The notes below the pieces were generated by a model. The model was not told where the DNA came from, ran no database searches, and saw nothing but the letters and a program-made list of their open reading frames with translations. From Lingula anatina (taxonomy: Eukaryota > Animalia > Brachiopoda), in the NCBI GenBank assembly GCA_051362555.1, contig CM120641.1, positions 27,224,401 through 27,288,400 on the forward strand: DNA of 64,000 bases. The letters are read 5' to 3'. A program made the translations under genes and the position numbers. This document shows positions 1-53,900 of this stretch, piece after piece. Position 1 is the stretch's first letter, and each line of letters starts with the position of its first letter.

Positions 1-1016
1 CACGTGAGGCAAGTAAAATATATAGGACACAGGCTTGAAAGAATTCTTATTTCTTAATTTTGCCTCGTATTGCTCGTTATGTTCTCATTTGGTGGCTGTG
101 GCGGTGAGGGGGGGGGGGGGGGGTAAGTGAGTCAGTAGCTACGAGAGAGGAACGTGCCTGCTGTAACTTTCCGATTTCCCCAGGTGATCACTATTCTTCT
201 TTAAAATGGAGGACTAATTACAAGACATATTATATATTAAAAATTTTAGGAAAAAATGTTGCGATATTTAGATAATATCCAACAAAAACCTTTTATTTCT
301 ACTTACCAGTATAACTTGCATGGGGAGTTAGGAACAACTACTGGCATTAATGCACTGACGAATCTGTTGTGATAGCACAAGAACTTGATTATAACTATAC
401 ATTAATAATACTGGCTGGGAACATAATAATATATGCTGATACAAATACGCGTGAAAATGTTGATTGTATTTACGGTTAAAGTCCACCATTATATTCCCAA
501 ACCAGAATGGATTTTTACAAATAAGCAAGGGATTTTGCCTTATAACTGTTGAAAAACTAATCCAATTTTCTATTATGCATACCGTGCAGTAATTGATAAC
601 ATACCTTCAGCATCTACATGTACTTAATTTTTTATGATTTTGCAAATAGATGTTCTCTTTTACATTTGTGTATATAAATAAAGCACCGGCACTTTGTGTA
701 CTGATTTAAATTTGCAGCACTTTTTCGTCATAATAATACTATGTTATTCTTTTCATTAGCTACTGCTCTCACTGTTCTTCTAAAATATATCTTAGCGTTT
801 CGTCGGTGACAACCTCATATAACAAGAAGACTAAAATTGGCTGTATAAATATTCTGCTGTTGTAAAGTGTGACAAAATATTATATTCCTAAGGATGTTGT
901 GGTGCATTTTCGTGTCTGATAAGATCTCTGTATGTACATTACCTTATATTTATGTTATATATGTTTATTTGACACTCTGAAAAAGTTACCCAGTTAATTT
1001 ATTTGACTTTTTCCAG

Positions 1017-4000
1017 GAACCCAAACCTGCCTGCCCCTGTTCTAACACAGTGGCCCAAGTACGACCATGTTCAGCGCGAATACCTCGACCTCAATGAGAA
1101 CATCACTGCCAAATCCAATCTCAAAGCACGTCGAGTTGCCTTCATGACCGACGTGCTTCAAAAGCTGGTGGAACTTCCATCGGAGGGAGTTTGTACAGAA
1201 ACGGGCGATGCCATGGATGACTTGGTTGTGAATACTTTTTACGGCAAAATCAGAGGGAAGCGTGAGGTCGTAAAAGAATGGTACTGGGAAATGTTTCTTG
1301 GCGTTCCCTATGCAGCTCCCCCCATAGGAGAACACCGATTTCTCCCACCAATACCTCCAAAAATGTGGAGCGGCATCCGAAATGCAACGGAATTAGGATA
1401 TTCCTGTCATGGAGGAGCGGTTTTTCCCTCACCCTCTCCTTTAACGTTCCACGAAGATTGTCTCACACTTAATATATATGTGCCTGCAGGAGTGCGAATG
1501 TGGAAAGACGAAAAACTTGCTGTAATGTTATTTATACACGGAGGTGCCTATGTGGTTGGATCAAGTTCAGAGTACGACGGAAGAGCACTTAGCTGGTACG
1601 GACGCGTCATTGTTGTCACCATAAATTATCGCCTCGGAATCTTCGGTTTCGCAAGCACTGGGGACCAGAATGCTCCCGGAAACGTTGGTCTGATGGATCA
1701 GAGTCTTGCAATGCGGTGGGTAAAACAAAACATAGCCTCCTTTGGTGGTGACCCCGAAAGAATAACTATATTTGGAGAATCGGCAGGTGCTGGAAGTGTC
1801 ATATACCAAATGCTTTCACCTATGAGTAAAGGGTTGTTCAAGCGAGCCATAGCAGAAAGCACATGGCTGGGAGCTTGGGACTTACATTTCATCGACCCAG
1901 CAAAAAAGAATAACATAGATTTGATACGCGAGTATGGCATTCATTTCAACTGCAGTTCTTCACCAGTAGACATGATAAGGTGCCTTCGTGATATCAATGC
2001 TTCAGATATAGCTCAATATGCCTCTGCAAACATGTTTTCTCTGCCATTAAAACTATTCACTCCAACTGTTGATCGTGAATTCATGCCCTATTCGCCATCC
2101 GAAACGTTCGATTTGCTTTTAAAATACAAAGACATGATTAAAGAAGATGACATGGTTGACCTACTTATTGGCACAAACAGTGGAGAAGGTTTGTCAGAGT
2201 CTTTTGGCGCAATATTAACGACGTTTCCCAATGGCTCTCAGACGACCAATGGATTAACAGAGAAAGAGTTCGACCAAATCATGAAAGCATATGTTACGCC
2301 AAGCGTAGGCAATAATCTTGAAATAATTCTACCCATGATCCAGAACGCTTATACCAACTGGGAGTCGCCAGACAATCCAATGAGACGACTTCGTGCTTTT
2401 CAAGACGTTATAAGAGATATCACATATGTGGCCGGGTCAGATTTGGCAGCACAGGTGCATTCTACCTTAGGAGGCAACACGTACGTGTATAGGTTTGCAC
2501 ACGAACCCAGTTTTGGCCATTTATTCCTCGGGACATATGGGCTGCCTACTGAACCAATCTATGGTTTAGCTGACCATGGGGAAGAACTTACCTACGTGTT
2601 TGGTCAGCCTTTATTCACTGATGTTGTCCCTATGAATGTTTCCTCAAGAGACGTTGAAGTGTCAAGACAAATGATAGCTTACTGGTCAAACTTTGCCAGA
2701 TATGGGTAAGGCCTTACAATACCGGAAGAATAGATGATACCGAAATCGTAGTGGTATTTTAATTAATTAAAATAAAATTTCTATTAATATTTAACTGTGA
2801 AGATCCTAAATAAACCTTTGAGACAAATAGGCAGAAATAATAATTTCAAGTCGAGATATAGAAAAATATTTCAGAAGTTTTTGATGTGACAATGATTTGC
2901 TGCCATAGGCCTACTGCCATTAGTAAAACAGATTTCTTTAAATTTCTGTAGTCCATTGAAATTATTACCTTGTGTATTTTCAGTTCTCCCAATGGTCCTA
3001 CAGTTCCAGTCCATTGGCCTCAGTACGAAACATCCATGACGTCATACATGTACATCGGAAACGAGACCGAAGTAAAACAAAATCTGGGTGGTTCCCGAGT
3101 CCAGCTATTGAAAAACGTAGTGAGACGCCTCGCTGACTCTGGCAATTGTCCTGCAACGTCAAAAACTATGTACACACCAGCTCCCTCTAACGGTTCGTGG
3201 ATAATGCAGTATATCATGCCGGATCAGCCTGAGGTCAATACCCGTGTTGGGCGTGTGAGAGGACTTGCTCTGCGGGCCAGCGCTTTTACTGGTGGAAAAG
3301 ATTTAGACCTTTTCCTAGGTATTCCCTACGCTAAGCCACCAACAGGTGATCGCAGATTCAAAAAGCCAGAACCATCAACTGCTTGGACTGAAACCCTCAA
3401 TGCAACAATGAGCGCACCACCTTGCCTTCAACTCCCGTCAGATTTTATGATGGTGCTTGGTTTGAATCACACCAGTGAAGATTGTTTATATGTGTCGGTC
3501 GTCGTGCCTCGAGGAACCGTAGTAAATGATAAGAAGCCTGTTGTTGCCTTAATTCATGGTGGCTTCTTTATAAACGGCAGTCCAGATGAACATTCACTGG
3601 GAATTTTCTCTTCTTTGGGCGATGTCATTACTGTAAGCATTAATTATAGACTCGGTATGCTTGGATTTATGTCGACTGGAGATGACACTTTGAAAGGGAA
3701 CCTCGGACTCTATGACATGGTGGCTGCAACAAAATGGATAAAAGAGAACATTGCTTCTTTCGGTGGCAATCCAGACAAAATAACCCTTTTTGGTACTGGA
3801 TCTGCAGGACTGGCAGTACTTAATATGATGGTCTCCCCTATGGCAAAAGATTATTTCCATCAGGCTGTCATCACGGGCCCTACCACGCCTTACGCTGCAC
3901 AAACGCCGGCTGCATTAGCGGAAATAAGCAGGAATTTTTCTGCTGGTATTGGATGCCGACAGGAATCGAGCTCAGAGCTTATAGAATGTCTGAGAAGTAA

Positions 4001-5314
4001 ACCAGCCGATGCATTCATTTACAAGGGAAATCCTTACCTGGCAAACCACGTATTCCTTGTCACTGATGGAGAACTAATAAAAAGTGATCTTGTAACAGCG
4101 TATACTACCAGTACTCAACTGAAGCCTCTTGTGATTGGAAGTACGTCAGACTATGCTGGTATCTTCCTTCAACAATATCTTGGTTACAGAGATTCTATGA
4201 CCCAGCAAGAAGTCGACGCTTCTATTGATATGACAATTGAAGCAGTTTTTCCCAAATCAGGAATGAAGGACCTTTTGAAAGCCATGATTAAACAGCAGTT
4301 TTTTTCATCAGAAATCAAAAATGATAAAGATAGACTGATGGCTCTCTTACACTTCTATAACAGCATGCACAAGTACGGCTGGTTGTATATGCTTGGTGTA
4401 GGGCACGCATCCCATGGTGGAGACGTGTATATGTACGAATTTAATCATCGTCCACAGTGGTCATGGTACCCCGAATGGATTGGCGCCACCTTCCGAGACG
4501 ACATCGGGTTTTTAGAAGGCTTACCGTTCGACAAACCACTTCTGGCTGAATTATCATTGTCAGTCACAGACCGAGAAGAAATGATCAGTGGGGCTCTCAT
4601 GTCGTATATCGGAAACTTTGTTGGAACAAGGTAGGCTGGCTAGGCATCATCAATAGTTTCTTGACTGATACATCTAGATTCGAGTTAAGATGTTAGCAGC
4701 AGATAAAAACCTGTATACTGAGCTAAAGAATTTTGGTCGTGTTTTGCGTATTTCAAATTTCCCATTATTGCAAACAAACATCGAATTTAACTTGATTATT
4801 ATACTTATTTACCGAAAGTATTTTATCAAAAATCCCTTCTTCTTTTTGTAGTAATCCAAACCAAGGCAATTTCCCAGTGTCCGTGGAATGGCCAAAGTTT
4901 GGTGAAGATGATCCAAACTACCTCTTGGCAGGTCTACGATTCATGGCAGCAGACATGAGGGACATGATGGGCCAAGAACAAATACGTTTCTGGCATGGTG
5001 AAGGAAAAAATAATTCCATACTGGACCAAGTTGCTACTATGAAGATGGACGCCCAAACAATGAGTACTTCAGCACCTACTATGCCCCCTGCTGCAACATG
5101 CCCACCCGCGTTGGGGAGCTCTGATTTCCTGAATTCAATGAATCTTGGTGTCAAAGGAGTAGAGGATCTTGTCTTGGCGCTCATTGTTATAGCTTCTGCG
5201 TTGGGTCTTTTCCTCATAATTGCAGTAGGGTATGTGTGCGTACTGAACGGCAGGGTTGGGAAACTTAAACAAGCTGCTTTCTCTACATCAAAGACTGAGC
5301 TATCCAAGATGTGA
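1017..5314 (+). CDS. Multi-domain carboxylesterase (type B/cholinesterase fold) membrane protein, copy 1; 5'-partial (first exon lies upstream of the window)
   Basis: Exons B1 1017-2705, C1 2984-4630 and D1 4852-5314. All introns are GT-AG phase 2 and restore G|NPN or S|NPN-type junctions. B1 has EDCLTLN, HGGAY, GESAG, GTNSGEG and ADHGEE. C1 has EDCLY, but FGTGSAG and ATFRDD in place of the catalytic motifs. D1 has a Thr/Pro stalk, a TM helix (LVLALIVIASALGLFLIIAVGYVCVL) and a short tail. Confidence 0.9.
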
Positions 5315-6175
5315 AGTGGAAATTTGCAAAATTTATATTTAATCAATCATTCAATGAGGAAATGAAAATAGTATTTGAGAAATGAAACAAAGAAAGACAT
5401 GTTTCGGTGTACAAACAAATTTTTAAGAAAACGCTTAAAGAAACAAAAAAAGAGTAGGAGTATTTTGTTAATACTGAAATACATTCTACCTCGTTATTCT
5501 TTTGTTTTATATATTCATCAACTATGTTTAGATATAAGATGGGAAATTTATTGTTCAATGAAAGTTTTTGATTCCATTATAAGGTTATTTGAAGTTAGAT
5601 ATGATTTCCATACTTTGTTAAGAAAGTACTTATTCGAATTACCCTATTATACAATATGTATTAACGGTTTTGTTATTTAAAAGGACGACGGATCTATAAT
5701 ATAGAATGATTACATTGTGGATTAAGGAAATGCTTTAGTTGAGAATTTAAAATAAGAGAAAATATGCATATTACTCTGGAATTCCGTCGTGTATCCATAC
5801 TTTATTTGGAACACTAAACGACGATCGACTTTCTTCTCAGTAGGTCGTTTCATTGCGTTAAGGTCCTAACAGGGTGATAGCTACAGTACAGGACATACTT
5901 TACCCATTTACAACAACTGGGCAATAAGTAAAAGGTGCGGCCCTTTTCGTAATTAGGTTATACCATTTTCACCCATTTGTGTCAAAGCTTGACTAAAGTT
6001 TTATAATTATTTCTGTGATTAATTCTATAGTAAATAAACGGATTGAACAGATCATTAATCTGCATGGTTATTTTTAGTCAATAGGTTTCCAATTTTAATC
6101 AACATCATAGAGATACTATGTAAAAGACAAATTTTGGGCACACGTTGAGCAATGCCTGCAGCTGCCTTTCAGAAT

Positions 6176-7096: not shown

Positions 7097-8505
7097 ATGT
7101 TCAATACTATAATCCCTGTGGTCTTCCTCTTTCAAGTTGCCTATTCACAGAGTGTTGTTCAAGTTCAGCAGGGCGATGTAATCGGCACAACAAAAACGAT
7201 TGGTAACACGACGGTGCATGCATACCTTGGGATACCCTATGCCGAGCCACCCCTAGGTGACCTACGGTTCAAGAAACCAGTACCTAAGGCTGCTTGGAGT
7301 TCCCCACTGAATGCCACCGAGTATGGACCGATATGCTTTCAAATGAACGCCATGTTTCCTAGCTCTGAGGACTGTCTGACACTTAATGTTCACGTACCAC
7401 AGGATAATAACACCGCCCCTAAAGCGGTCATGGTTTGGGTTCATGGCGGAGGGTTTGTCGTGGGCAGTGCCAGAGCAATGGATCCTGTAGGTCTAGCCCT
7501 GGCAGACGTTATCACAGTTAGTGTCAACTACCGTTTGGGCATGTTTGGCTTTCTTACTATCGTGGACGAGGTAAAAGGTAATTTCGGACTTTGGGACCAA
7601 CACCTCGCTTTCAGATGGATAAATAATAACATTGCTGCCTTCGGAGGGGACCCCAACAGAATCACGATATTCGGAGAATCTGCAGGCGGTATGAGCGTGT
7701 CTTTCCATGCTATGTCTCCAATGAGTAACGGACTGTTCCATCGTGTCATAAGCCAAAGCGGGGTTGGCAGTCAATATTTTGTCCTTCGACCGAGTCCCAC
7801 AATTATCACTTCTCTGAGCAAAACTTCGAATTGTAACACCACCGATTCGGCGGCTTTGCTATCTTGTCTTAAAGGTAAAAGTGCCCAAGATCTTCTTGCT
7901 GTCTCTAATACCTTTGAACAGTATTGGAGGCCAAACATGGATAACGAGTTTATAACTGGAAACGTTGAAAGCTCATCAAACCTTCTGCCAGAACAATATG
8001 GAAACCTTGATTTTTTGATGGGAAGTAATAGTCGTGATGGTACTGTCGGAATCGCGGTGCCTTCCGAAGCTGAAAATGGTTATACAGAGTCAACTTTCCG
8101 CAGATATGTCGACCGTATGTTAACTGGGAGATTGGACAAAGATATCATTGAAAGGGCGTTGATACAAGAGTACACTGCAGATGTCTGTAATCCAGATAAC
8201 AGAACGCGCGTACAGCAAAAAATAGAAATCTCTACGGACCTCTTTTTTACAGTCCCTACCGAGTTGAACGCTCTCAAACATGACAGAACCAACGGTACTG
8301 GTTCCACGTTCGTATATTTTCTCTCCATAAACACGTGCCACAAACTACCGCCCACGGTGTCTTGGCTTGATGGAGCTGGACATGCCGACGACCTAATCTA
8401 CATTAATGGTCTGGTTAGTGTTTTGTGCAACGGTAGCGCAACACCTGCTGATTTTGCCCTACAGACTGCTATGATAACTTATTGGACCAACTTTGCTAAA
8501 TCTGG
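7097..8505 (+). CDS. Carboxylesterase first exon A1 (signal peptide plus most of domain 1)
   Basis: ATG at 7097, signal peptide MFNTIIPVVFLFQVAYSQ, motifs HGGG, GESAG, GSNSRDG and GAGHADD. Ends ...NFAKSG with phase-2 donor GG|GTAAG at 8505/8506, compatible with the exon B2 acceptor at 18138. Confidence 0.85.
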
Positions 8506-9386
8506 GTAAGTTATTCAGTTAAGAATACGAGATTTTTACTGTGGTTTGAAGCAGGCTATTGACATCTGACATGGCAAAGGTAACACAGATATGTTAACAG
8601 GGGAATTTCATGCTTTGAGAGATAAATCATAGTTCCCTTTATAGCAAGTTAAGTTTCCATAAATGAATAAAGTTTTTCTAATCAATAGCGTTGAACACCC
8701 AAACCCAATATAGAGGTGCATTTCACAAGTTCAAGCCTCAAAAAATGAAATTGAATGAATTCGATGTATTATCCAATTTTTTAAAACTTGCATGTGTATA
8801 GAACAAAAATCTACAAATGTCCCAATTTTACGACCACGCGTTTCTGTTTTGTAAGCAAATAAATTGATAACCGTTTGAAGTAAAAAAGCATAAGAAAGAA
8901 CATACGTTAACACTAAATCGCCTGATACAAACACGATCATTAGTTGAGCGCTGTGGAAATTTGTGCAAGCTAAACACTATCAGAACCCTAAGAGTCATTA
9001 ATAATGGAAAAGTGATAGGAAAATACATTTAAATTGACCAGATCTAGGAAAATTACTTTCAAACTAAAGATCATTTTTCTTTACAATGTCCACGTTGATG
9101 ACTCTTTCAATAGCAGTAATTGTCAATTGTATAGAGAAATGAAAACTTTGTTACCTAAAAGTTATCTACCACTGGTCATATTCGTCGTGAATTTAAAACT
9201 CATTGACAGTTTCAAATTTTGGGTTTATTAGTTACAATACCAACTACGCCTCGCATCCTTCGCATTCCGTAATGTAACGTACGTTCCACAGCCATAGAAA
9301 AGATACGGGACACGAGTTCAATAAATATTGATAAGATATTTTTTTCGCTTTTTTTCGTAAAAAGACATCAAAAGTGATAACCTTGG

Positions 9387-9534
9387 GGGCTTCGTATCTC
9401 GAAAGGTTCGCTATGTTGCGCACGTGCGCAAGTGTCTCGATTCCATGGTCCCGTATGTCGAAATAGAATCGGTTATGGAATTGAGACGCTTTCGCACGTG
9501 CGCAACACAGCGAACCTTTCGAGATACGGAGCCC
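9387..9534. mobile_element. Foldback MITE with ~60-bp arms
   Basis: GGGCTTCGTATCTCGAAAGGTTCGCT...TTCCAT is the near-perfect inverse of ATGGAA...AGCGAACCTTTCGAGATACGGAGCCC. Confidence 0.8.
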
Positions 9535-9893
9535 AGGATTTTGTTAGGAAGGATGAGAAGCAAAATGATTTTAACGACGGAGGGCATTTTACTAAAACAC
9601 AATGGACACAGGCATAAAAGAATTCTTAGTTTTGCCTTGTTTTGCTCGTCATGTTTTCATTTGGAACATTATTTTAAAAAATATTTACCGAACAAGCTGA
9701 AGTGTAGCCTCAATTACTAAAAATATTTATTTGATATGGAAAATTTGCTTGAACCAGTCTTATTTTATTAACACTGTGAATGACACATTCTCCATCGTCA
9801 TCGTTGAATTACCATTATTATTACATCCCTAATCTTATTTAACAATCTTATTGTTTAGGCCTGGTTTAAGTTTGTTTAAGTAATGATAGCCAT

Positions 9894-10050
9894 CCCCGGC
9901 AGGCAAAGTCGCGTTGGATCAACGTTGCAAACAGGTTGATACGTTGAATTGCCGTTGTTCTACCTAAATTCAACCTAAAATCAACGTTGATCCAGCCACG
10001 TCGAAACACCGTCATAATGTGACGTTGACGCAACGTTGTAGTTTGGTCAT
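9894..10050. repeat. Repeat fragment with multiple (A)ACGTTG motifs, resembling DNA-transposon subterminal repeats
   Basis: CAACGTTG/CGTTG recurs many times within ~150 bp. The family is not assigned. Confidence 0.45.
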
Positions 10051-11223
10051 GGACACAACCTTGCAGACATGAATTGTAATTTAAAATATTAATTGTTGAA
10101 AACGTGATACTTTGTTTATCAATACTGTAACTAACTTTATCATAATTCTGACCATTGCTGATCTCCTCCGGTACCCTTTATTGACCGTACTTTATATAGT
10201 GTGATCACACTGTCAGTCTTCCTCATGTTGCACGCTGCAGTTAAATTGTCCTTGCGCCACTGCTAAATATTTTCTTCTATTCTGTTGTTTATATAAACCT
10301 TCTCATTTATTTTTGAATATTATAATCTCATTACCCATTGTGCGCTCTTAGAAACGGGGGATTTAGCAATATGCCTCATAACTATTACAGGACGCCCTTT
10401 TTTCTTATTGTTGTTAAAAAATGGACGTTAGTTTGTCGAGGTTTATTGCTTAGCTCTTAACGCGTTATATTTATGTGCATCTAAACGATATGTCAGTTTT
10501 TACTTGACTGATATTTCCCCTTGTCGCAAGTATGCTTTCTTACTACATGCGATCTAAAACAGGTCGTTTGTGTATCTAAAATCTGGCCGACAGGACGTAT
10601 CTCCACAGCAGCCGGACACACAGTAACTGTGAAGTCATGGTTTTAAAGCTTGTTTGAGAATGATAACAACCGCGTTTAACAATACATTGCGAGCTATAGT
10701 ACCCCCTCCTCTTTAAGCGTCGTACTATAATGTAAAGGCGACAAGTTATCAGATTGTCAGGCTTTTTCCCTGTCGCACATTGGTCTTCAATTATCATGTC
10801 CCCATTCTACCACATTAGTCTTACATGTAGTGTGTTATGAGAAGCGGAGGATTTCTAACACAGCAAAAGAAATGGGGGTGCGGGGGGGGGGGGGTACAAC
10901 ATCAAAAGGATTTTTAAAGGAATTGCCTAATAGGTTGATGTGTTATTTGAACCAAAACGATTTCCTGAAGATCAAATTAAAAATTAATATCTATTCCAAA
11001 AAAGGTGTATATTAAAATATCAATGAGTTTGCATTTAATGTTATCCCTCCTTAAGGGGCCATGTGCTGATTATAATGGCACACCTTGATGCTAAACAGTC
11101 TATCGTTTCTTCCACCTTGGGTCCCTTATATTCAAGTACCATATTGTATTACTCATATTCAGGCCTACCCACATACCAGACTCGGCACATAAGGATCCTG
11201 ACTTACCCGGTATATCGGACCAC

Positions 11224-11370
11224 ACTACCCGTTTTCAAGGTGTGTGTCAGATCGCATTTCGGAATATCATATCCCGAACAAAGTTTGTAGGACGACCGCA
11301 AGCTCATCCTGTCGGTGTTCTGACTGATACTCCGAAATGCGATCTGACATAAACCTTAAAAACGGGTAGT
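11224..11370. mobile_element. Foldback MITE
   Basis: ACTACCCGTTTTCAAGG...TGTCAGATCGCATTTCGGA is inverse to TCCGAAATGCGATCTGACA...CCTTAAAAACGGGTAGT. Confidence 0.8.
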
Positions 11371-11498
11371 CCTAAATTGCTATCAGCCGAGCTCGCACAG
11401 AAGTTAATTATCCCTTTACAGCTTTTAGTAGGCGGGACAGACATTTAAACAGCTAAGCTGACAGCAATCTAGTGAGACTCCCAACAGGGATAGATCGA
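11371..11498 (+). mobile_element. Partial (right-half) copy of the MITE family found at 52924-53360
   Basis: CCTAAATTGC...CAGCCGAGC...AGTTAATTA...TTACAGCTTTTAGTAGGCGGG...GCTAAGCTGACAG..ATCTAGTGAGACTCC matches 53208-53336. Confidence 0.8.
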
Positions 11499-11996
11499 AT
11501 CATTACCTGACCCGTCCGTGCACTTGGATTCGACGTCTTACTCCATTTTTAATTTAACATTTATTGATGACTGACCAGCCATAAAGAGCGGCGTGTGAGA
11601 AAATGGTGCGGTGTTTTGTATCGCAACTCTGCACCGTGTATCATGCAGCCGTTGCAAGTTGTCAATGACTGGCCGAGAATTACCCCAAGATAATGCCGAC
11701 ACAAAGTTCGCTTCAGAAAAGAATTTTAAGGGTATTATCGCCTTAAAGGTCCAAATGGGGATATCTTAACATGATACAAATATGCCCGTGGCGGATTATT
11801 TAACAGCGTAGACATCCTTTAAAACAAATATTTACTACTGATATGTTAATGTTTGACAATAAGATTAAGAAATAGTTGTATTGAGGGTCAATTGTATAAG
11901 AAGACACAAAGTAGTTCTCCCGACATTTTGGTAAAGTTATCCCTACCGTTACCCAAACGGGTATACCAGAAATATGTTCAATACTATTATAATCTC
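11497..11996 (+). promoter_or_regulatory. Duplicated upstream/putative promoter region of the A-type exon (copy of 6603-7115)
   Basis: Alignable from GAATCATT(G/A)CCTGA through ...CCAGAAATATGTTCAATACTAT in both places. Promoter function is inferred from position only. Confidence 0.7.
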
Positions 11997-14024
11997 CAGG
12001 GGCGGATTTAGGCCGTCTTCTGGGTCTTCCGGAAGACGGTCAAATTTTAAAGTTTACACTGACGGGTATCTAATATTTTCTGTCGGAAGACGGTCAAAAA
12101 TGGAGGATGGATGAACAAAAATAATTTGGAAGACTGTCAGAAAATATATTATCGGACCCGCAGGGTCAAGTACAATACCGGGTATTTTGCTTTATTTATT
12201 AACGTGATCAAACAATGGCCAGCTTTACCCGCGAAGAAGCTGGATTGTGCAATACTGACTTGTCATTCACTACGGTTCTCTCGTACCTTCATGTAAACAG
12301 AGGTGTGTTGACACTGCACTCTACCAGGCACGACGGGTTTTCTATACATTTAGATAAAGAACAGCAGTGGAGTGCAGTCGCACAACCCTGGCTTTTGTAC
12401 AAAATGATACCGTTCAGTGCATGTGTGTTGTTCTGTGTAATCCTCCATGCTGACACCTCCTTTGCTCAGAGAAGAGTCACTGTACAGCAAGGAGATATCA
12501 ATGGGAAAACATCAATTCTTGGATCGGACGTGATCTCCTATCTTGGGATACCCTACGCTGAACCTCCTTTGGGTGATCTACGATTCAAGAGACCAGTACC
12601 TAAGGCTGCTTGGAGTTCTCCACTGAATGCCACTGAGTATGGACCGATATGCCTGCAAATGAATGCCCGATTTCCCAGTTCCGAGGATTGTCTCACACTT
12701 AATGTTCATGTACCGCAGAATAATAACACCACCCCTAAAGCAGTCATGGTTTGGGTTCCTGGCGGAGGGTTTGTCTCGGGCAGCGCCAGAGCAATGGATC
12801 CTGTAGGTCTAGCCATGGCAGACGTCATCACAGTTAGTATCAACTACCGTTTGGGCATGTTTGGCTTTCTTACTATTGCGGACGATGTAAAAGGTAATTT
12901 CGGACTTTGGGACCAACACCTCGCTTTCAGATGGATAAAAGACAACATTGCTGCCTTTGGAGGGGACCCCAATAGAATCACGATATTCGGAGGATCTGCA
13001 GGCAGTATGAGCGTGTCGTTCCACGCTATGTCTCCAATGAGTAACGGACTGTTCCATCGTGTCATAAGCCAAAGTGGGATTGGCACTCAATATTCTGTCC
13101 TTCGACCTAATCCCACAATTGTCACTTCTGTGAGCAAAACTTCAAATTGTAACACCACCGATTCGGCGGCTTTGCTATCTTGTCTTAAAGGTAAAAGTGC
13201 ACAAGATCTTCTTGCTGCCTCTAATACCCTTGGACAGTTGCTTATTTGGAGGCCGTATGTGGATAACGAATTTATAACTGGAAACGTTGAAAGCTCATCA
13301 AATCTTCTACCAGAACAATATGGAAACCTTGATTATTTGATGGGAAGTAATAGTCGTGATGGTACTGTCGGAATCTTTGTGCCTTCCGAAGCCGAAAATG
13401 GTTATACAGAGTCAACTTTCCGCAAACATGTCGACCGTATGTTAACTGGGAGATTGGACAAAGATATCATTGAAACGGCGTTGATACAAGAGTACACTGC
13501 AGATGTCTTTAATCCAGATAACAGAACGCGCGTACAGCAAAAAATAGAAATCTCTACGGACCTCTTTTTCACAGTCCCTACCGAGTTGAACGCCATCAAA
13601 CATGACAGAACCAATGGTACTGGTTCTACGTTCGTATATTTTCTCTCCATAAACACGTGCAACAAAATTCTGCCCACGGTGTCTTGGCTGGATGGAGCTG
13701 GACATGTCGACGAACTAATTTACATCAATGGTCTGGTCAGTGTTTTGTGCAACGGTAGCGCCACACCTGCTGACCTAGCCCTACAGACTGCCATGATTAC
13801 CTATTGGACCAACTTTGCTAAATCTGGGTAAGTGATAAATACTTGTTCTAAATACATGGCATACGACAGGGGCGGATTTTGGCCGTGTTCTGGGAGACGA
13901 CCAGATTTTCAAGTTTACATTGACGGGTATGTAATTTTTTCTGACGAAATACGGTGAAAATGGTGGATGGATCAACAAAATTAATTTGGAAGACTGTCAG
14001 AAAATATCTCTGGATCCAGCCCTG
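11997..14024 (+). mobile_element. Composite, gene-carrying non-autonomous element: two direct MITE copies (11997-12147, 13867-14024) enclosing exon A2
   Basis: Starts CAGGGGCGGAT and ends ATCCAGCCCTG (imperfect TIR). Flanked by ATCTC at 11992-11996 and 14025-14029. Confidence 0.8.
12404..13827 (+). CDS. Carboxylesterase first exon A2 (different signal peptide), carried inside an insertion
   Basis: ATG at 12404, MIPFSACVLFCVILHADTSFAQ. Motifs PGGG, GGSAG, GSNSRDG and GAGHVDE. Phase-2 donor GG|GTAAG at 13827/13828. Confidence 0.8.
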
Positions 14025-17000
14025 ATCTCTGTGGTCTTCCTCTTTCAAGTTGCCTATTCACAGAGTGTTGTTCGAGTTCAGCAGGGCGATGTGATCGGCA
14101 CAACAAAAACGATTGGTAACACGACGGTGCATGCATACCTTGGGATACCCTTTGCCGAGCCACCCCTAGGTGACCTACGGTTCAAGAAACCAGTACCTAA
14201 GGCTGCTTGGAGTTCCCCACTGAATGCAACCGAGTATGGACCGATATGCCTGCAAATGAACGCCATGTTTCCTAGCTCTGAGGACTGTCTGACACTTAAT
14301 GTTCATGTACCGCAGAATAATATCACCGCCCTTAAAGCAGTCATGGTTTGGGTTCATGGCGGAGGGTTTGTCGTGAGCAGTAGTAGAGAAGAGGACCCTA
14401 TAGGTCTAGTCCTGGAAGACGTCATCAAAGTTAGTGTCAACTACCGTTTGGGCATGTTTGGCTTTCTTACTATTGGGGACGATGTAAAAGGTAATTTCGG
14501 ACTTTGGGACCAACACCTCGCTTTCAGATGGATAAAAGATAACATTGCTGCCTTCGGAGGGGACCCCAACAGAATCACGATATTCGGAGAATCTGCAGGC
14601 GGTATGAGCGTGTCTTTCCATGCTATGTCTCCAATGAGTGACGGACTGTTCCATCGTGTCATAAGCCAAAGCGGGGTTGGCAGTCAATATTTTGTCCTTC
14701 GACTAAGTCCCACAATTATCACTTCTCTGAGCAAAACTTCAAATTGTAACACCACCGATTCGGCGGCTTTGCTATCTTGTCTTAAAGGTAAAAGGGCCCA
14801 AGATCTTCTTGCTGCCTCTAATACCTTTGAACGGTTTTGGAGACCAAACATGGATAACGAGTTTATAACTGGAAACGTTGAAAGCTCATCAAACCTTCTG
14901 CCAGAACAATATGGAAACCTTGATTTTTTGATGGGAAGTAATAGTCGTGATGGTACTGTCGGAATCGCGGTGCCTTCCGAAGCTGAAAATGGTTATACAG
15001 AGTCAACTTTCCGGAAATATGTCGACCGTATGTTAACTGGGAGATTGGACAAAGATATCATTGAAAAGGCGTTGATACAAGAGTACACTGCAGATGTCTT
15101 TAATCCAGATAACAGAACGCGCGTACAGCAAAAAATAGAAATCTCTACGGACCTCTTTTTTACAGTCCCTACCGAGTTGAACGCTCTCAAACATGACAGA
15201 ACCAATGGTACTGGTTCTACGTTCGTATATTTTCTCTCCATAAACACTTGTCACAAACTACCGCCCACGGTGTCTTGGCTTGATGGAGCTGGACATGCCG
15301 ACGACCTAATCTACATTAATGGTCTGGTTAGTGTTTTGTGCAACGGTAGCGCCACACCTGCTGATTTTGCCCTACAGAATGCTATGATAACTTATTGGAC
15401 GAACTTTGCTAAATCTGGGTAAGTTATTCAGTTAAGAAAACGAGATTTTTACTGGGGTTTGCAGCAGGCTATGGGCATCTGACATGGAAAAAGTAACACT
15501 GATATGTTAACAGGTAAATTTCATGCTTTGAGAGATAAATCATAGTTCCCTTTATAGCAAGTTACGTTTCTTTAAATGAATAAAGTTATTCTAATCAATA
15601 GCGTTAAATCGTATAAAAGTACGGCTGGCTATCACATAAATGTATTTTTATACTTACTGTTATATTTACTCAGGTGATCTGTACATGATCACATTTTATT
15701 ACCTTATATTCTCTGCTTTTCACGAGAAACAGAATAAGCAATAAGTAATAGTGCTTTGTGTTTTATAATAATCATTACGACCTTAAATGTATTAAATACC
15801 TGTAATTTTAGTTTCTCAAACCTCACCCATCGATATTTTCATTATAATACTTACATATTTAAGGCCCGTAGTCATTTGCGATATTGTGATAATGTGTATA
15901 GAGCACTACCAGGTTTTAAAATTACAACTGTTTTGTACGGGGAAATAATCATTAAACACGATACCCACTTTCGCAATAAAAATTCGCCAATACTGTAGCG
16001 TCTGATTTTTCAAATTTTTTCGCTCACCATACGTTCATCCATGTATTTCTCCGTGTACATGTATCACCCATTCACTTCAAAGTAAACAGTGTATCATAGC
16101 GCAAATAAGGAAACGTATATGTATTTTCATGGGTATGGGCATCGTTAACTACAATGTAACCGTAAAAGAGAATGTAATATAGAATAAAAGATTCAAAACA
16201 GTTTTCATATGTCAGAAAGTAACGGGTCAAAGACTGGGGTTAAAAGCCAGTTTTAATCACTTATTATACACTTGGTTATAACCAAGGGAGCAATTCAATA
16301 GGTTTATATAAAAGCGCTATACTAGAGAATCAAAAACAAACTGACGGACAAAAGTAGGTGCCTGTACAATTAAGCAAATGATGGTTTCTGCATTGTTAGA
16401 AGTTTACACCCCCAACATGTACGCCCAGCTCTTGACCCCATCTGATCTTTTTGTTATATAATAATTATTAGCAGTCATTTTATCAGGTTCAAAAATATTG
16501 AGTAGACTTACAGTGTCGAGTTCCGATTATTAATCTGCACAGGTAACCTCCGTCCTAGATTTTCACCCTCTTTCGTCCCGCTACCTGTAACCCTAATCTA
16601 TGTGAATATTATGGTTGGCATAGTCTAAGTGACATTGGCCTTTGCTTTCTTAACACCGAGCATAATTTTAAAAATAAATTGTAGAGCTAGGTTCGACGAC
16701 GGCATGAACGAGGGCATTAACCGCGCAAACATAAAACAAATTCTAAAATAATGTTACATTAGCATTTAACCAATATATCCCTTATCCTATATTTTCCCAA
16801 AATGTATTATAAATGTATTACAAAAAAGAGCCATTTTATCAATGTTCCATGCTGTCAGAGGTTATGATGTACACTAAGTACAAACATACAAGCAAACCAT
16901 GCATACAAACTGGCAGCTCACCTGTAAATTACTTGGGCAATTTACATGCTCATTATGTTATTTACAATGCAAAGACACAAATGGGATGTGGCCTGGACCA

Positions 17001-17216: not shown

Positions 17217-20200
17217 GGACACAGGCATGAAAGAATTCTTAGTTTTGCCTTGTTTTGCTCGTTATGTTTTCATTTGGTGTTGGGGGTGGGGGGTAGGTGC
17301 GTCAGTGGCTTCGATATACATTATAAATAATACGAAATATGTTTTGATAGTCAAATAATATCCAACAAAACATTTTATATGTTCATACCAGTATTTCTCG
17401 TAGGAACAACCACTGACATTAATGCATAAGGAATCTGTTGTGATACTACAAGAACATGATGATAACTATATATGTATAATACTGGTTGAGAACTTCATAA
17501 TATATTCTTATACCAATAAACTTGAAAATGGCGAAAAATTTAAGTTGCTTGTATTAACAATTTAACTCAGTTATTCATTACTTCTTTAACCATTATATCC
17601 CCGAACCAGAATGCGATTTTTGTCAGGGCAATTTGTCTTATAAGTGTTGAAAAAAATCAATTTCCCTACTATGCATACCATGCAATGATTGATAACATAC
17701 CTTTAGCATCTACATGTATTTTATTTCTTATGATTTCGCAAATAGATGTTCTCTTTTACATTCGTTTATCTAAATGAAGCACTGGCACTTTGTGTACTGA
17801 TTAACACTTTCAGCACTTACAGCAAAATAATACTACATCTTTCTTATCGTTTGCTACTGTTTTTTCTGCACTTCTAGAAATATATTGTCGTTTTGTCAAT
17901 GAAAAACTCAATAGATCAAATTTGCAGTGGTAAATACTTTTACTGTGGTGATATTTCCCCACAAAAACGCCCAAAATTTGAGAGAAAATTGCTTATGTTT
18001 CTAAGGATGTTTTAGTGCATTTTTGCGTCTGATAAGATGTCTGTAAGTACCAACATAATAACCATATATTTATTAAATGGATGTTTATTTGACACTTCGA
18101 AAAAGTTACTCAGTGTATGTATTTGACTTTTTTCCAGGAATCCAAACCAGCCTGCCCTCGTGGCAACACAGTGGCCCAAGTACGACCATGTTCAGCGCAA
18201 ATACCTCGACCTCAATGAGAACATCACTGCCAAATCCAATCTCAAAGCACGTCGAGTTGCCTTCATGACCGATGTGCTTCAAAAGCTGGTGGAGCTTCCA
18301 TCTGAGGAAGTGTGTACAGAAACGGGCGATGTCATGGATGACTTGGTTGTGGATACTTTCTACGGCAAAATCAGAGGGAAGCGTGAGGTCGTAAAAGAAT
18401 GGTACTGGGAAATGTTTCTTGGCGTTCCCTATGCAGCTCCCCCCATAGGAGAACACCGTTTTCTCCCACCAATACCTCCAAAAATGTGGAAAGGCATCCG
18501 AAATGTAACGGAGTTAGGATATTCCTGTCATGGAAGAGCGAATTTCACCTCACCCTCTCCTTTTAAGTTCCACGAAGATTGTCTCACACTTAATATTTAT
18601 GTGCCTGCAGGAGTGCGAATGTGGAAAGACGAAAAACTTGCTGTAATGTTATTTATACACGGAGGTGGCTATGTGGCTGGATCAAGTTCAGAGTACGACG
18701 GCAGAGCACTAAGCTGGTATGGACGAGTTATTGTTGTCACCATAAACTATCGCCTCGGAATCTTTGGTTTCGCAAGCACTGGGGACCAGAATGCTCCTGG
18801 TAACGTTGGTCTGATGGATCAGAGTCTTGCAATGCGGTGGGTAAAACAAAACATAGCCTCTTTTGGTGGTGACCCCGAAAGAATAACTATATTTGGAGAA
18901 TCGGCGGGTGCTGGAAGTGTCATATACCAAATGCTTTCACCTATGAGTAAAGGGTTGTTCAAGCGAGCCATAGCGGAAAGTACATGGATGGGAGCTTGGG
19001 ATTTACATTTCATCGACCCAGCAAAAAAGAATAACATAGATATGATACGGAAGTATGGCATTCATTTCAACTGCAGCTCTTCACCAGTAGACATAATAAG
19101 GTGCCTTCGTGACATCGATGCTTCAGATATAGCTCAATATGCCTCTAAAGACTTGTTTTCTTGGCCACTCAGATTATTCACTCCAACTGTTGATCGTGAA
19201 TTCATGCCCTATTCACCATCCCAAATGTTCGATTTGCTTTTAAATAACAAAAACTTGGTTGAAGATGATGACATGGTTGACTTACTCATTGGTACAAACA
19301 GTGGAGAAGGATTGAGTCAGTCTTTTGACTTGATATCAAAGATGTTTCCCAATGGTTCTCAACTGACCAATGGATTAACAGAGAAAGAGTTTGGCCAAAT
19401 CATGGAAGCATATGTTACCGAAAGCGTAGGCGACAATCTTAAAATAATTCTACCCATGATCCAGAACGCTTATACCAACTGGGAATCACCAGACAATCCA
19501 ATGAGTCGTGTTCGCACTCTTCAAGACTTAATAGGAGATATCTCATTTGTCGCCGGGTCAGATTTGGCTGCACATGTGCATTCTACTCTAGGTGGCAACA
19601 CGTACATGTATAGCTTTGCACACGAACCTAGTTTTGGCCATCCCTCCCTCAGGCTGCTTGGGCTGTCTACTGAACCAATTTATGGTTTGGCTGGCCACGG
19701 TGATGAACTTACCTTTGTGTTTGGTAAGCCTTTATTCACTGATGTTGTTCCTAGGAATTTTTCCTCAAGAGACGTTGAAGTGTCAAGACAAATGATAGCT
19801 TACTGGTCAAACTTTGCCAGATATGGGTAAGCGCTTACAATACCGGAAGAGTAGATTATACCTAAATAGTAGTGGTATTAATGAATTTTTTATGTTTAAT
19901 TGTGAAGACCTTAAATATACCTTCGAAACAAGTATGCAGAAATAATAATATAAAAAAATATTTTGTAAAGCTCTCAAATTATATATATGATGTGACTTTG
20001 ATTTGCTGCTATAATGTCATCAGTAAAACGGATTTTAAAAATATTTATGTACTTCATTTTCAGTTCTCCCAATGGCCCTACAGTTCCAGTCTTTTGGCCT
20101 CAGTACGAAACATCCATGACGTCATACATGTACATCGGAAACGAGACTGAAGTAAAACAAAATCTGGGTGGTTCCCGAGTCCAACTATTGAAAAACGTAG

Positions 20201-22425
20201 TGAGACGCCTCGCTGACTCTGGCAATTGTCCTGCAATGTCAAAAACAATGTACACACCAGCTCCCTCTAACGGTTCGTGGATAATGCAGTATATCATGCC
20301 GGATCAGCCTGAGGTCAACACCCGTGTTGGGCGTGTGAGAGGACTTGCTCTACGGGCCAGCGCTTTTACTAGTGGAAAAGATTTAAACCTTTTCCTAGGT
20401 ATTCCCTACGCTAAGCCACCAACAGGTGATCGCAGATTCAAAAAGCCAGAACCAACAACTGCTTGGACTGAAACCCTCAATGCAACAATGAGCGCACCGC
20501 CTTGCCTTCAACTCCCGTCAGATTTCATGATGGTGCTTGGTTTGAATCGCACCAGTGAAGATTGTTTATATGTGTCCGTAGTCGTGCCTCGAGGAACCGT
20601 AGTAAATGATAAGAAGCCTGTTGTTGCCTTAATTCATGGTGGCTTCTTTATAAACGGCAGTCCAGATGAACATTCACTGGGAATTTTCTCTTCTTTGGGC
20701 GATGTCATTACTGTAAGCATTAATTATAGACTCGGTATGCTTGGATTTATGTCGACTGGAGATGACACTTTGAAAGGGAACCTCGGACTCTATGACATGG
20801 TGGCTGCAACAAAATGGATAAAAGAGAACATTGCTTCTTTCGGTGGCAATCCAGACAAAATAACCCTTTTTGGTACTGGATCTGCAGGACTGGCAGTACT
20901 TAATATGATGGTCTCCCCTATGGCAAAAGATTATTTCCATCAGGCTGTCATCACGGGCCCTACCACGCCTTACGCTGCACAAACGCCGGCTGCATTAGCG
21001 GAAATAAGCAGGAATTTTTCTGCTGGTATTGGATGCCGACAGGAATCAAGCTCAGAGCTTATAGAATGTCTGAGAAGTAAACCAGCCGATGCATTCATAT
21101 ACAAGGGAAATCCTTACCTGGCAAACCACGTATTCCTTGTCACTGATGGAGAACTAATAAAAAGTGATCTTGTAACAGCGTATACTACCAGTACTCAACT
21201 GAAGCCTCTTGTGATTGGAAGTACGTCAGACTATGCTGGTATTTTCCTTCAACAATATCTTGGTTACAGAGATTCTATGACCCAGCAAGAAGTCGACGCT
21301 TCTATTGATATGACAATTGAAGCAGTTTTTCCCAAATCAGGAATGAAGGACCTTTTGAAAGCCATGATTAAACAGCAGTTTTTTTCATCAGAAATCAAAA
21401 ATGATAAAGATAGACTGATGGCTCTCTTACACTTCTATAACAGCATGCACAAGTATGGCTGGTTGTATATGCTTGGTGTAGGGCACGCATCCCATGGTGG
21501 AGACGTGTATATGTACGAATTTAATCATCGTCCACAGTGGTCATGGTACCCCGAATGGATTGGCGCCACCTTCCGAGACGACATCGGGTTTTTGGAAGGC
21601 TTACCGTTCGACAAACCACTTCTGGCTGAATTATCGTTGTCAGTCACAGACCGAGACGAAATGATCAGTGGGGCACTCATGTCGTATATCGGAAACTTTG
21701 TTGGAACAAGGTAGGTTGACTGGGCTCCATAGTCACAAAATCAATAGTTTCTTGTATGATACATGTAGTTGGATTCGATTTTAGATGATAGCAGTAGATC
21801 AAAACCTGTATACTGAGTTAAAGAATTTTGGTCGTATTGTGCGTTTTTCAAATTTCCCTTTATTACAAACAAACATCGAATTTAACTTGATCATCATTGT
21901 AATTTACGGATAGTATTTTATCAACAATCCTTACTCCCTTTTGTAGTAATCCAAACCAAGGCAATTTCCCAGTGTCCGTGGAATGGCCAAAGTTTGAGGA
22001 AGATGTTCCTAACTACCTCATGGCAGGTCTACGATTCATGGCAGCAGACATGAGAGACATGATGGGCCAAGAACAAATACGTTTCTGGCATGGTGAAGGA
22101 AAAAATAATTCCATACTGGATCAAGTTGCTACTATGAAGATGGATGCCCAAACAATGAGTACTCCGGCACCCACTACGCCCCCTGCAGCAACATGCCCAC
22201 CCGCGTTGGGGAGCTCTGATTTCCTGAATTCAATGAACCTTGATGTCAAAGGAGTAGACGATCTTGTCTTGGCACTCATTGTTATAGCTTCTGCGTTGGG
22301 TCTTTTCCTCATAATTGCAGTAGGGTATGTGTGCGTACTAAACGGCAGGATTGGGAAGCTTAAACAAGCTGCTTTATCCACTTCAAGGATTGAGCTAACT
22401 AAGATGTGAAATGAAAATTGAAAAA
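17217..22425 (+). repeat. Tandem segmental duplicate of ~26-5345
   Basis: Upstream intron, exons B/C/D and the two short introns are colinear with an offset of ~17.1 kb. Homology ends just after the stop codon. Confidence 0.95.
18138..22409 (+). CDS. Multi-domain carboxylesterase membrane protein, copy 2, downstream exons B2, C2, D2
   Basis: Exons 18138-19826 (1689 nt), 20064-21710 (1647 nt) and 21947-22409 (463 nt), the same lengths and phases as copy 1. With A1 the total is 5208 nt, or 1735 aa. Confidence 0.9.
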
Positions 22426-23069
22426 TTGTGCCTTTTTGGTCAGCTAAACATGTGTCCATTGCACATATTGAAATAACTTCTTGCCAGTATACGTCAAATA
22501 TGATAATGTCATCTTATATATCTTATTCGGATTGAGAAATAATTGCACACTGATGATTAATATCCAGATGAAAAAATGAAATAATTCAGGTTCTAAATCC
22601 TTTTACATGATCTTCTTAAAGTTTACATGTTTTACTTTAGCTTCTTTTTGATTATTAAACCTTAAATAAATCTGTTTCACGAATCTGTAAAACGGAGATG
22701 AGCCTCGTGGAGTTAGGTCGAAAATTGAAAAAAAAGCTTGGTTATTAATTTTAAGGTTTATGGGCCATGGTTTGCAATTTTAACGTTTTAACAAATATTA
22801 TATTGACAGTCTAATTATGGCAACACGGTCTAAGGGTAAAAGGGTTAATTTAAAGGGACAGGGTACTCAGATATATAAAGGTATATCTATTTTTGTACTC
22901 CTGTCTGTAACAGTTCTAAGTTATAGATAAAACAACTTATTTAAGGCAGACTGAAAAAGACACGTGACCGCTTTGAATCCCTAGATACGCTTTGAGCAGA
23001 TCAATATCGATTTCAAATTAAATATGAGCCGATTTCAAAATTAACGTTAAAAAAGTAATGACGACACTG

Positions 23070-50928: not shown

Positions 50929-53900
50929 ATGCGTGGATGAGAAAACTGGCGAGAAAGCTCTTGTGTAAAAATACTTGAAGACAACCTATGTAAAATGACA
51001 TAGTATACTCAAGACGAAGCTAGAAACTCTGCCTTAACAGGCAACATTTAAAATCTTAAAGCACAACGTTAGAGTCGTCAAAAAAAGTAATCTACTTCTT
51101 TGTTACACTTATATTAACTTAGGCGAAAAGGGTGAGGTGGGTCCTCGTGGAGACTACGGCCCCCCTGGTCCAATTACACCAGGTCCGAAAGGTGAACGGG
51201 GCGAACCTGGTGAGATTGGATTTCCCGGACCGCCTGGCCCTGAAGGTATAAGAGGATTTGAAGGTGGTCTGGGGTTCCCAGGTCCAGCGGGTCCAGTCGG
51301 TGCCAAGGGAGAAAAAGGTTAGTAAAAATATACATATATTTGACGCAAAGGGTTATAGAAAGTCTGGTTTCAAATAATGAAAATATACTTCTTTTCATTA
51401 ATTTTAATTTAAAAATTTAATTTAAAATTAAATTTAATTTAAAAAATTAAATTTAATTTAAAAAAATTAAATTTAATTTAAAAATCAAAATTGCGCAAAA
51501 TGCAAATGATAAATACTAACATTGTGAATGTAAAATCTTGGCCTTAAGAACAAAGAGGAGATGTCATTTACGACTATGTAAAACGTTAATTCCTGACATT
51601 TTCATCTCCCAGGTGAAGCAGTTCCTCTTTTCGGTCCGAAAGGAAAGAAAGGAGAACCGGGCTACGGCAACCCTGGTCCTATGGGCCCAGGGGGTAACAG
51701 AGGGGTCCCTGGACCCCCGGGCCCTATTGGACCACCAGGGTCCATTGGATTCCCTGGAAATCGAGGATTGGATGGACCACCAGGACGCACGGGTCGCATC
51801 GGAGCTCCAGGTAAACGACAGTACTAGATGAAAGATTTTAGAATGAGTAAGAGGTATTATATATGGCACAAAAATTATTTATAATACACTCTCAAGAAAA
51901 ATCTTACTTTTACAGTGACGCGTAGATAAACGTGAATCTTAAAGTGTATTTTTCAAAATGTCATACAAATCTTTCTCGTATTATGACAGAATTGAAAATA
52001 GTAAAAAAATACAAATAATTCCTTGTAATATATATGTTACCTATACACATGCACCATTCTTTGCTTTGTACACTTATTGCTACACGTACATTTATCAAGT
52101 ACACAATAATTATATATGAGTCTCTCGGTTGTGTAATCCTAGGTTCCCCAGGCAACTCTGCCTTCATCTATGCGCGCCATAGCCAGAAACGCGATCGCAT
52201 CGTCTGCGCTCAAGGACACAGATTACTCTGGGAAGGCTATAGCTTACTACACACTGAAGACGACGGAAGATCCCACGTGCAGGATCTAGGTATTTTGTTA
52301 AGTCGCAGTATTTTCACAACATTTATATATGGTGGCAATTTTGCCAAGCGCAAAAGCTCATATTTTGGAAATCAAAGCTCCCAAAACATGAGACAGATTC
52401 GGTGAAATAGTTTTTTCATTGTCTCTTGTGCAATGATGATAAATGAGTAAAAACGCGTTTTCCCCTTTAAGTTATACATGAACCTAAAAGTGCTACCTTT
52501 CAACAACAACATCTGTCTTGAAGTTTCATCTCAAAGTTAATTTGACTTGTACTTAAGCCAACTTCTCTTTCGGTCAAAAGGGATCCTTTGTACCATTTTT
52601 CTATGAAAATTATTACATGAAATTCTCAAGAGGGGTTAAGACGGAGAATCAAATAAAAACCGTGTTAAAATATTTCAGGGCAAGCTGGGTCATGCATGCG
52701 GAAATTCAGCCCAATGCCTTTCATGTTCTGTAATATCAAGAACCAGTGCAACTACGGCAAGAGGACGGCCACGAGTTATTGGCTGTCCACAGACATGCCC
52801 ATGCCCATGGTGCCAGTGACGATGGGAGATGCCGAGCCGTATATAGGACGGTAAGCACGTGAAACCCATGTGGAGACTGTCAAAAGTTTGATACAGTAGG
52901 CCTATTATGTGAGAGTTGACATAGGGTGCATTCCCAGAGATTTCGATCGATCCAGATATTTAGATCGACCTAACTCCTTGGGGGTTCACTCTAACACCCC
53001 ATTCTCATAGATTAGATCGACCTACATTGGATCGACCTAACTCCCTGGGGGTTCACGCTAAATAGCTGTCAGCCGGGCGGACACGAAAGTTAATTACCCC
53101 TTAAAGCTTGTAGTAGGCGGGGACGGACACTTAAGGGGGATTATCTGACAGTAATCTAGTGAGACTCCCCGCGGTGATAGATCGATCTAAAAGTTGTGAG
53201 AACAGAGCCTAAATTGCAGTCAGCCGAGCGCGCACCATAGTTAATTACCCCCTTACAGCTTTTAGTAGGCGGGGCAGACGCTTAAGCCGGCTAAGCTGAC
53301 AGTAATCTAGTGAGACTCCACACAGGGAAAGATCGATCTAAAATCTATGGGAATGGGGTCATAGTGTCCGATTGATCAAAGTCCAGTACATCATCCCAAG
53401 GAAATTGTATTCTGGAAAGATATGATCTCATTCTATGACATGTATAAATGTCCGTCTGTCAGATTCAAACAGAAGTGGTGACAAAAACCAAACTTCCCCG
53501 CTTAAAACATGTCGTGATAAGAGAAGGTGGCATTTTATCACAATATTTTGGGGAAATATACCTAACTGAACGTTTTTAGGAGGATATTAGAGGTCAGTCT
53601 TGGGAGTTTGGCTAATGTGTACTCAAATCGACCACCTTTTGAATTGAAAGAATGCGAAATGCAGAAAGAAGGAATTACACATTTTTATAGATATGACACC
53701 CCACGTATTATATTTCCAGATGTGGAGTCTGCCAAGCTCCGGGTCCGGTTATAGCTCTTCACAGTCAAGACTCCGTCATTCCCACCTGCCCTGATGGGTG
53801 GAACGAGTTGTGGATGGGATATAGTTTCGTAATGGTATGTCTTGTGCGATTTTTAAACCTACGGTCATAACTTAGGTTTAATGAAATGCACGATGAGAAA

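Follow-up and report, generated by a model that had tools for sequence, protein, structure and literature searches.

Two miniature transposable elements and an esterase first exon inside a paralogous exon of Lingula anatina

How does a complete first exon, provided with its own signal peptide, come to lie inside the signal peptide of a related exon? The question is raised by a 64,000-nucleotide stretch of the genome of the brachiopod Lingula anatina (contig CM120641.1 of assembly GCA_051362555.1, positions 27,224,401 to 27,288,400; hereafter the window, in whose own numbering positions are given) that encodes tandem multi-domain carboxylesterase genes. Their exons are found in the order B1-C1-D1, A1, A3 and B2-C2-D2, and exon A3 of a three-domain carboxylesterase gene is interrupted by an insert of 2028 bp (11997-14024) that carries a further first exon, A2, between two copies of a miniature inverted-repeat transposable element (MITE). 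Transposon-driven exon shuffling in animals has mostly been inferred from cases that are old and decayed. At this locus donor, empty allele and product can be set side by side at allele-level identity. We regard this insertion as real, recent and polymorphic, and as unusually well documented.

The insert, its empty site and its donor

Both breakpoints of the insert coincide exactly with MITE termini: it starts with CAGGGGCGGATTT directly after one ATCTC and ends with GGATCCAGCCCTG, at 14024, directly before a second ATCTC. This target-site duplication (TSD) is the only one, stands outside the outermost termini of the two-MITE block and would arise by chance, at 5 bp, with a frequency of about 0.001 per junction pair. 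Removing the insert and one ATCTC from the interrupted A3 (11974-15418) yields an open exon of 1412 nt whose product begins MFNTIIISVVF, so that the coordinates, the junctions and the restored frame are as claimed in a first-pass annotation of the window made from its letters. The two MITE copies lie in direct orientation and are 83% identical across 151 alignment columns. The left copy matches the family to 12147, continues into a degenerate GGACCCGC at 12154-12161 and misses the final 5 bp, CCCTG; the right copy, preceded by TACGA rather than by the TSD, terminates in AGCCCTG where the family has GCCCCTG. The lost end of the one and the foreign flank of the other had both been noticed at first reading and are borne out. 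The cargo upstream of the exon, then given as ~255 bp, has that length if counted from 12149 and comes down to ~242 bp once the degenerate MITE end is counted. Exon A2 itself was correctly described as a complete first exon with signal peptide, splice donor and 39 bp of intron; its ATG stands at 12404 and its donor, GG/GTAAGT, at 13827. At 12155-12167, the site of the 5-bp loss in the left MITE, there is an inverted repeat, GACCC-GCA-GGGTC, which is possibly the scar of an aborted excision or of a template switch.

The empty allele is known from two sources. RefSeq protein P0242 (XP_013418766.1, 1736 aa) corresponds to an intact A3 followed by B2, C2 and D2; it begins with the same MFNTIIISVVF and differs from the rebuilt A3 at 5 of 470 residues. 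The sequencing runs examined were 4 of 10 DNA runs (X1, X2, X6 and X7) and 2 of 9 RNA runs (X12 and X18). In DNA run X1 a joint leads from 11991 to 14025, skipping exactly 2033 bases, at a depth of 95.8; since single-copy contigs of this run have depths of ~97-100 and heterozygous sites ~42-56, X1 appears homozygous for the empty site. X1 also differs from the window at full-depth sites and is therefore another individual, whose empty site does not contradict the assembly. An empty site in other individuals, which the first-pass annotation had proposed to look for, is accordingly present. In a separate listing of joints of the DNA runs, the 15 of 197 that are given are all repeat noise.

The donor lies upstream. 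RefSeq gene LOC106179609 is represented by two models, P0121 and P0241, which share B1-C1-D1 and differ in the first domain. A2 is identical to P0241 at 472 of 474 residues and to P0121 at 82%, and A2 joined to B1-C1-D1 shows 18 differences from P0241 in 1740 residues. Judged by its sequence, A2 is an allele-level copy of a first exon that the upstream tandem paralog uses as an alternative, and the separate donor locus that had been predicted is thereby located. The donor gene has its first exons beyond the left edge of the window, and the target is at least 12 kb away from them. Two contigs of X1 preserve the inner junctions of the block: one (12120-12236) joins the left MITE to the cargo with 0 differences at a depth of 92.5, the other (13804-13931) joins exon, intron and right MITE with 0 differences at a depth of 99.3. 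Because these junctions are intact in a run with an empty site, contig depth indicates that at the donor the exon already stood between the two MITEs, the left of them already without its right end. The MITE copies share only 83% of their sequence, the cargo matches its donor at allele-level identity, and the MITEs are therefore older than the move. An X2 contig reaches position 13956 of the right MITE and continues for at least 39 letters before it ends, with one difference listed there; this suggests that the right copy is mostly donor-derived and donor-like to ~13995.

The donor exon has a history of its own. A2 is a mosaic, its N-terminal ~60 residues resembling P0121 and P0002 and its residues ~230-400 resembling A1 and A3, a pattern suggestive of gene conversion between first exons at an earlier time. 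Mosaicism as a product of the move was rejected, P0241 being already mosaic; likewise already in the donor are two changes close to the A2 active site, P119 and G197, where A1 and A3 have His and Glu.

Route of the move

We think it likely that the 2028-bp block moved by local composite (macro)transposition through its outermost MITE ends. A transposase supplied in trans would bind the intact left end of the left copy and, this copy having no usable right end, would use instead the right end of the right copy 2 kb away; the two-MITE unit would then have been inserted at least 12 kb downstream in one recent local cut-and-paste jump. The exact TSD and a donor carrying both MITEs support this as the leading route among those that the first-pass annotation had offered. 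Its other label, Pack-type transposition, is not supported. In the Pack-TIR (terminal inverted repeat) survey, parents are by definition unlinked to the TIR element, and linked parents were excluded and, by its own account, perhaps missed (PMC8277862); the parent of A2 is not free of the element, since the donor itself carries both MITEs.

Such an event is of a known kind, with a mechanism known from maize, where Huang and Dooner reportedly described Ac/Ds macrotransposons in 2008. The Lingula block has host DNA between two elements of one family that point the same way, a TSD at the outer ends only, an empty site and, as contig depth indicates, elements that flank the cargo at the donor. In the maize system, host DNA within outer termini moves or is copied as a unit, and it can reinsert locally with the original retained (PMC9910405). 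As in maize, host DNA between outer transposon termini would have behaved here as one unit; unlike in maize, the ends come from two diverged non-autonomous MITEs of ~160 bp, the TSD measures 5 bp and not 8, the host is an animal taken from nature, and what is carried is an entire coding first exon that lands in phase in a paralog. The hybrid Pack-CACTA model has neighbouring direct elements that lose an inner end and hold the intervening DNA as a unit, and the same preprint mentions local hopping for several TIR transposons (bioRxiv 10.1101/342816). The Lingula block differs from that model in keeping both element bodies with one inner end damaged, in its CAG rather than CACTA termini and in its animal host. 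It resembles Pack-TIRs and P-element end-bypass (PMC8277862) in being a TIR-bounded duplication near its parent that is potentially chimeric with a neighbouring gene; unlike in P-element end-bypass, the far end is a second element copy and not cryptic sequence. A literature search on Lingula anatina carboxylesterase returned no paper on this locus, and among the titles found none concerned an animal exon carried between two MITEs as a composite, titles only being a weak guide.

The TSD length bears on the class of the element. The MITE belongs to a high-copy family, with a summed contig depth of ~1e5 against ~100, and its left end is sharp: in all four DNA runs, 142-171 contigs per run come loose before 11997. 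RNA reads show CTCTGGATCCGCCCCTG as the right end of the family, so that the AGCCCTG end of the right copy is slightly degenerate. No metagenome contig matched a 21-mer taken from the interior of the MITE. In other organisms, a scan found at least 120 loci with the same termini (L001-L120), one of them with too little flank; de-duplication left 101 elements. Among these matches listed, 38 of the 101 have an exact TSD of 5 bp, 7 of 8 bp, 2 of 6 bp and 2 of 4 bp, and 52 have at most 2 duplicated bases; shuffled flanks gave a mean of 0.43 five-base matches and a maximum of 3 in 1000 shuffles. In the same matches, the terminal sequence CAGGGGCGGAT occurs with 5-bp and with 8-bp TSDs in different elements, and 3 of the 7 elements with 8-bp TSDs continue CCAGC(C/T)CGTAA. 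Moving the boundaries of the elements by 1-3 bp did not improve the TSD model. A duplication of 8 bp was also considered, A3 having 8 extra bases relative to A1, and was rejected because the extra Ile codon is already present in P0242, the empty allele.

hAT5 transposons, which are defined by their transposase, have a 5-bp TSD (PMC12730594). This insertion shares the 5-bp TSD with hAT5 and, as expected of hAT lineages, the same termini give 5- and 8-bp TSDs among the matches listed. The transposase acting in trans is probably hAT5-like, a label that we infer. Transib transposons also make 5-bp TSDs, with a TIR beginning CACAATG (PMC1131882), and were ruled out by the CAGGGGC at the start of the MITE TIR.

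Several observations weigh against composite transposition or weaken the case for it. The reads and contigs listed include none across either outer junction, so that the assembly is the sole witness of the insertion allele. Contig depth is a rough guide and not a copy number, and the empty site is documented by one run and one database model, too few to exclude an allele with a solitary MITE. The G of the window at 12113 occurs in no X1 or X2 contig and X1 has no cover at 13956, and the outer parts of the MITEs are consequently not proven to be donor-derived. The right TIR bears two changes, at positions 6-7 from its end. The 5-bp length put forward for the MITE family has the support of the 38 same-termini elements; these belong to other organisms and have only termini in common with the MITE, and 7 of the 101 have 8-bp TSDs. 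In Lingula itself, two contigs run past an end of the right-copy type into different flanks; the X2 loose end begins TACTA and matches TACGA at 4 of 5 positions, a likeness that is only suggestive, and the X1 loose end does not match.

These points matter most for a rival route by recombination between MITE copies, which the first-pass annotation had named and which is still alive, if distinctly unlikely. A single MITE would first have inserted at ATCTC, and a break in it would then have been repaired from the nearby donor through homology to the two donor MITEs, which would copy A2 in with no composite jump, whether by gap filling, ectopic conversion, circle integration or serial unequal crossing-over. 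Gap filling at a solitary MITE yields an identical final anatomy, the donor is near and bracketed by homologous MITEs, and the unseen G at 12113 agrees with this route. According to Tan et al., 160 of 281 Pack-TIRs (56.9%) are found no more than 15 kb from their parent, and for single-copy Pack-TIRs near the parent gap filling is favoured (PMC8277862), a further argument against a composite jump. Repair nevertheless needs a solitary-MITE intermediate, and neither X1, apparently homozygous empty, nor the likewise empty RefSeq model has such an allele. By the X2 contig, the right copy appears to resemble the donor as far as 13995 or beyond, which would leave ~30 bp for a third copy, and X1 and X2 show its degenerate end at other loci too, as loose ends behind 14025 and 14024. 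Gap filling also requires two rare events, not one.

Misassembly, in which the assembler would have passed from A3 through MITE copies to the donor exon and back, is very improbable. The lack of carrier reads among those listed, the abundance of the MITE family and the absence of the insertion from X1 speak for it; an artefact would not give an exact 5-bp duplication of typical length unless a MITE were truly present, the MITE copies are only ~160 bp long and 83% alike, and the window is free of Ns on an assembled piece that reaches >17 Mb further. Retroduplication by a long terminal repeat (LTR) element or terminal-repeat retrotransposon in miniature (TRIM) would account for direct terminal repeats and a 5-bp duplication but has practically no chance and was rejected on its termini: such elements have near-identical terminal repeats with TG..CA ends, and here CAG..CTG inverted repeats delimit copies that are 83% alike despite the new cargo, the cargo retains upstream DNA and an intron, and both repeats were already at the donor.

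If composite transposition is correct, the exon travelled by the ends of two separate tiny elements, a route that the animal Pack-TIR survey says may have escaped it (PMC8277862). Abundant MITE families bracket many exons, and this may be a common route of domain exchange in tandem gene clusters.

Predicted product and expression

The insert is predicted to knock out A3: the A3 frame is disrupted as had been claimed, its ATG at 11974 reading into the MITE for 46 codons up to a TGA at 12112. The phase compatibility of A2 with B2 likewise withstood examination, A2-B2-C2-D2 giving an open frame of 1740 aa with a hydrophobic N-terminus, and A2 could be spliced in phase to B2-C2-D2 as a new 1740-aa combination. 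A2 matches Pfam PF00135 (type-B carboxylesterase; E=2.7e-117), and its S198, D319 and H434, which we take to be the Ser-acid-His triad, align with GESAG, D320 and GADH of 1jmy. The proteins closest to A2 are from Lingula anatina, at 85% and 73% identity, the next matches falling below 50%; they are slightly unlike the window, which thus derives from another individual or assembly.

Which promoter would drive the hybrid is a separate matter. AUGs precede the A2 ATG at 11974, 12100, 12107, 12111, 12215 and 12291, and with these six and the stop at 12112 efficient translation of A2 from the A3 promoter is unlikely; decay of the transcript is plausible. The functional swap behind that promoter, which the first-pass annotation had inferred, is thus unproven. 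The left MITE has a predicted fold of -51 kcal/mol, calculated with no shuffle control. A candidate promoter within the 242-bp cargo is a more plausible source of A2 than the A3 promoter. The upstream cargo contains TGCACTC twice in inverted orientation (12315-12321 and 12370-12376), presumably resembling metal-response elements and perhaps by chance. Candidate cryptic acceptors in the A3 remnant stand at 14049 (17 of 20 pyrimidines), 14063 and 14065; the first two shift the frame, and the weak GAG at 14065 is in frame and would add a fourth domain. RNA runs X12 and X18, sampled at ~6 and ~25 in 100 reads, gave no read on A2 or A3 at 98%, a negative that does not bear on the allele, as neither carriers nor tissue are known; the 53 and 56 reads placed were all partial MITE matches. 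Meaningful expression of the A2-B2-C2-D2 hybrid is possible, though we lean slightly against it.

At the donor A2 serves as an alternative first exon, and A1 is still in place upstream of B2, in frame with it; a set of variable first exons would therefore have been enlarged or reshuffled, and no sole N-terminus replaced. Several first exons with their own starts, in phase with shared downstream exons, are a feature of UGT1A and the protocadherins. The donor gene resembles these clusters in its two RefSeq models (themselves numbered X1 and X2), which join different first exons to common exons. The difference lies in the variable exon, which here encodes most of an esterase domain in a three-domain membrane-anchored protein, and in the movement of the cassette between two genes. 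That two MITEs served as a composite transposon moving a promoter-plus-catalytic-domain cassette between variable-first-exon genes, with an expressed A2-B2-C2-D2 segregating in a wild population, is a tentative and rather unlikely reading. If it were true, exon shuffling would be caught with donor, empty allele and product together; if the hybrid is unexpressed, the insertion is merely a rare knockout allele of one esterase isoform.

The surrounding locus

The features of the locus are collected in Table 1.

Table 1. Features of the carboxylesterase locus and of the insert, in window coordinates
Feature	Position	Strand	Remarks
Exon B1	1017-2705	+	98% to P0121/P0241; upstream paralog
Exon C1	2984-4630	+	99% to P0121/P0241; upstream paralog
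Exon D1	from 4852 (B1-D1 block ends 5314)	+	97% to P0121/P0241
Exon A1	7097-8505	+	Esterase first exon, intact and in phase 2; tandem copy of A3
A3 upstream region	11496-11973	+	84% to A1 upstream region; putative promoter
A3 5' stub	11974-11996	+	ATG and first 23 nt of signal peptide, left TSD included
Left TSD, ATCTC	11992-11996	+	Single copy in empty allele
MITE left copy	11997-12161	+	Left TIR CAGGGGCGGATTT intact, right end degenerate
Cargo upstream DNA	12162-12403	+	From donor; candidate core promoter
Exon A2	12404-13827	+	Signal peptide and carboxylesterase domain, 474 codons, phase-2 donor
Donor intron, first 39 bp	13828-13866	+	Precedes right MITE
MITE right copy	13867-14024	+	158 bp, right TIR imperfect (GGATCCAGCCCTG)
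Right TSD, ATCTC	14025-14029	+	
A3 remainder	14030-15418	+	Without start codon, within predicted A2 intron
Exon B2	18138-19826	+	99% to P0242
Exon C2	20064-21710	+	99% to P0242
Exon D2	from 21947 (B2-D2 block ends 22409)	+	98% to P0242; predicted membrane anchor

Exon A1 shows 9 differences from P0001, and a TATA-like motif, TATAA, occurs at 11895 in the A3 upstream region. Exon B2 starts with GAATCCAAACCAGCC and B1 with GAACCCAAACCTGCC. The splice donors checked are all GT (7 of 7), and all three A exons finish in phase 2. Their donors, GG/GTAAG at 8505, 13827 and 15418, read as GGG TAA if left unspliced, and an unspliced transcript would thus encode a secreted single domain ending FAKSG; RefSeq proteins P0001 and P0002 end in the same way. 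AATAAA or ATTAAA motifs are found downstream of A1 and A3, and none within 700 bp after A2.

The B-C-D exons form a tandem duplication of 5.1 kb (231-5333 and 17315-22427, 89% identical) in which exon C is almost identical and exon B further diverged, an unevenness that suggests patchy conversion or selection. In domain C (20064-21710 and 2984-4630) the usual GxSAG/His pattern is missing and GTGSAG and GATFRDD are found instead; by these motifs the domain, like neuroligin, is probably non-catalytic. Between A1 and A3 the spacer (8696-11495) is dense with other repeats. Among them are two palindromic elements, at 9387-9534 and at 11224-11370, and a repeat family at 11371-11498 that is found again at 53058-53336. 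Multi-domain carboxylesterases of 1000-2700 aa (P0122-P0240) are widespread in fish (ces2b), lancelets, molluscs and insects.

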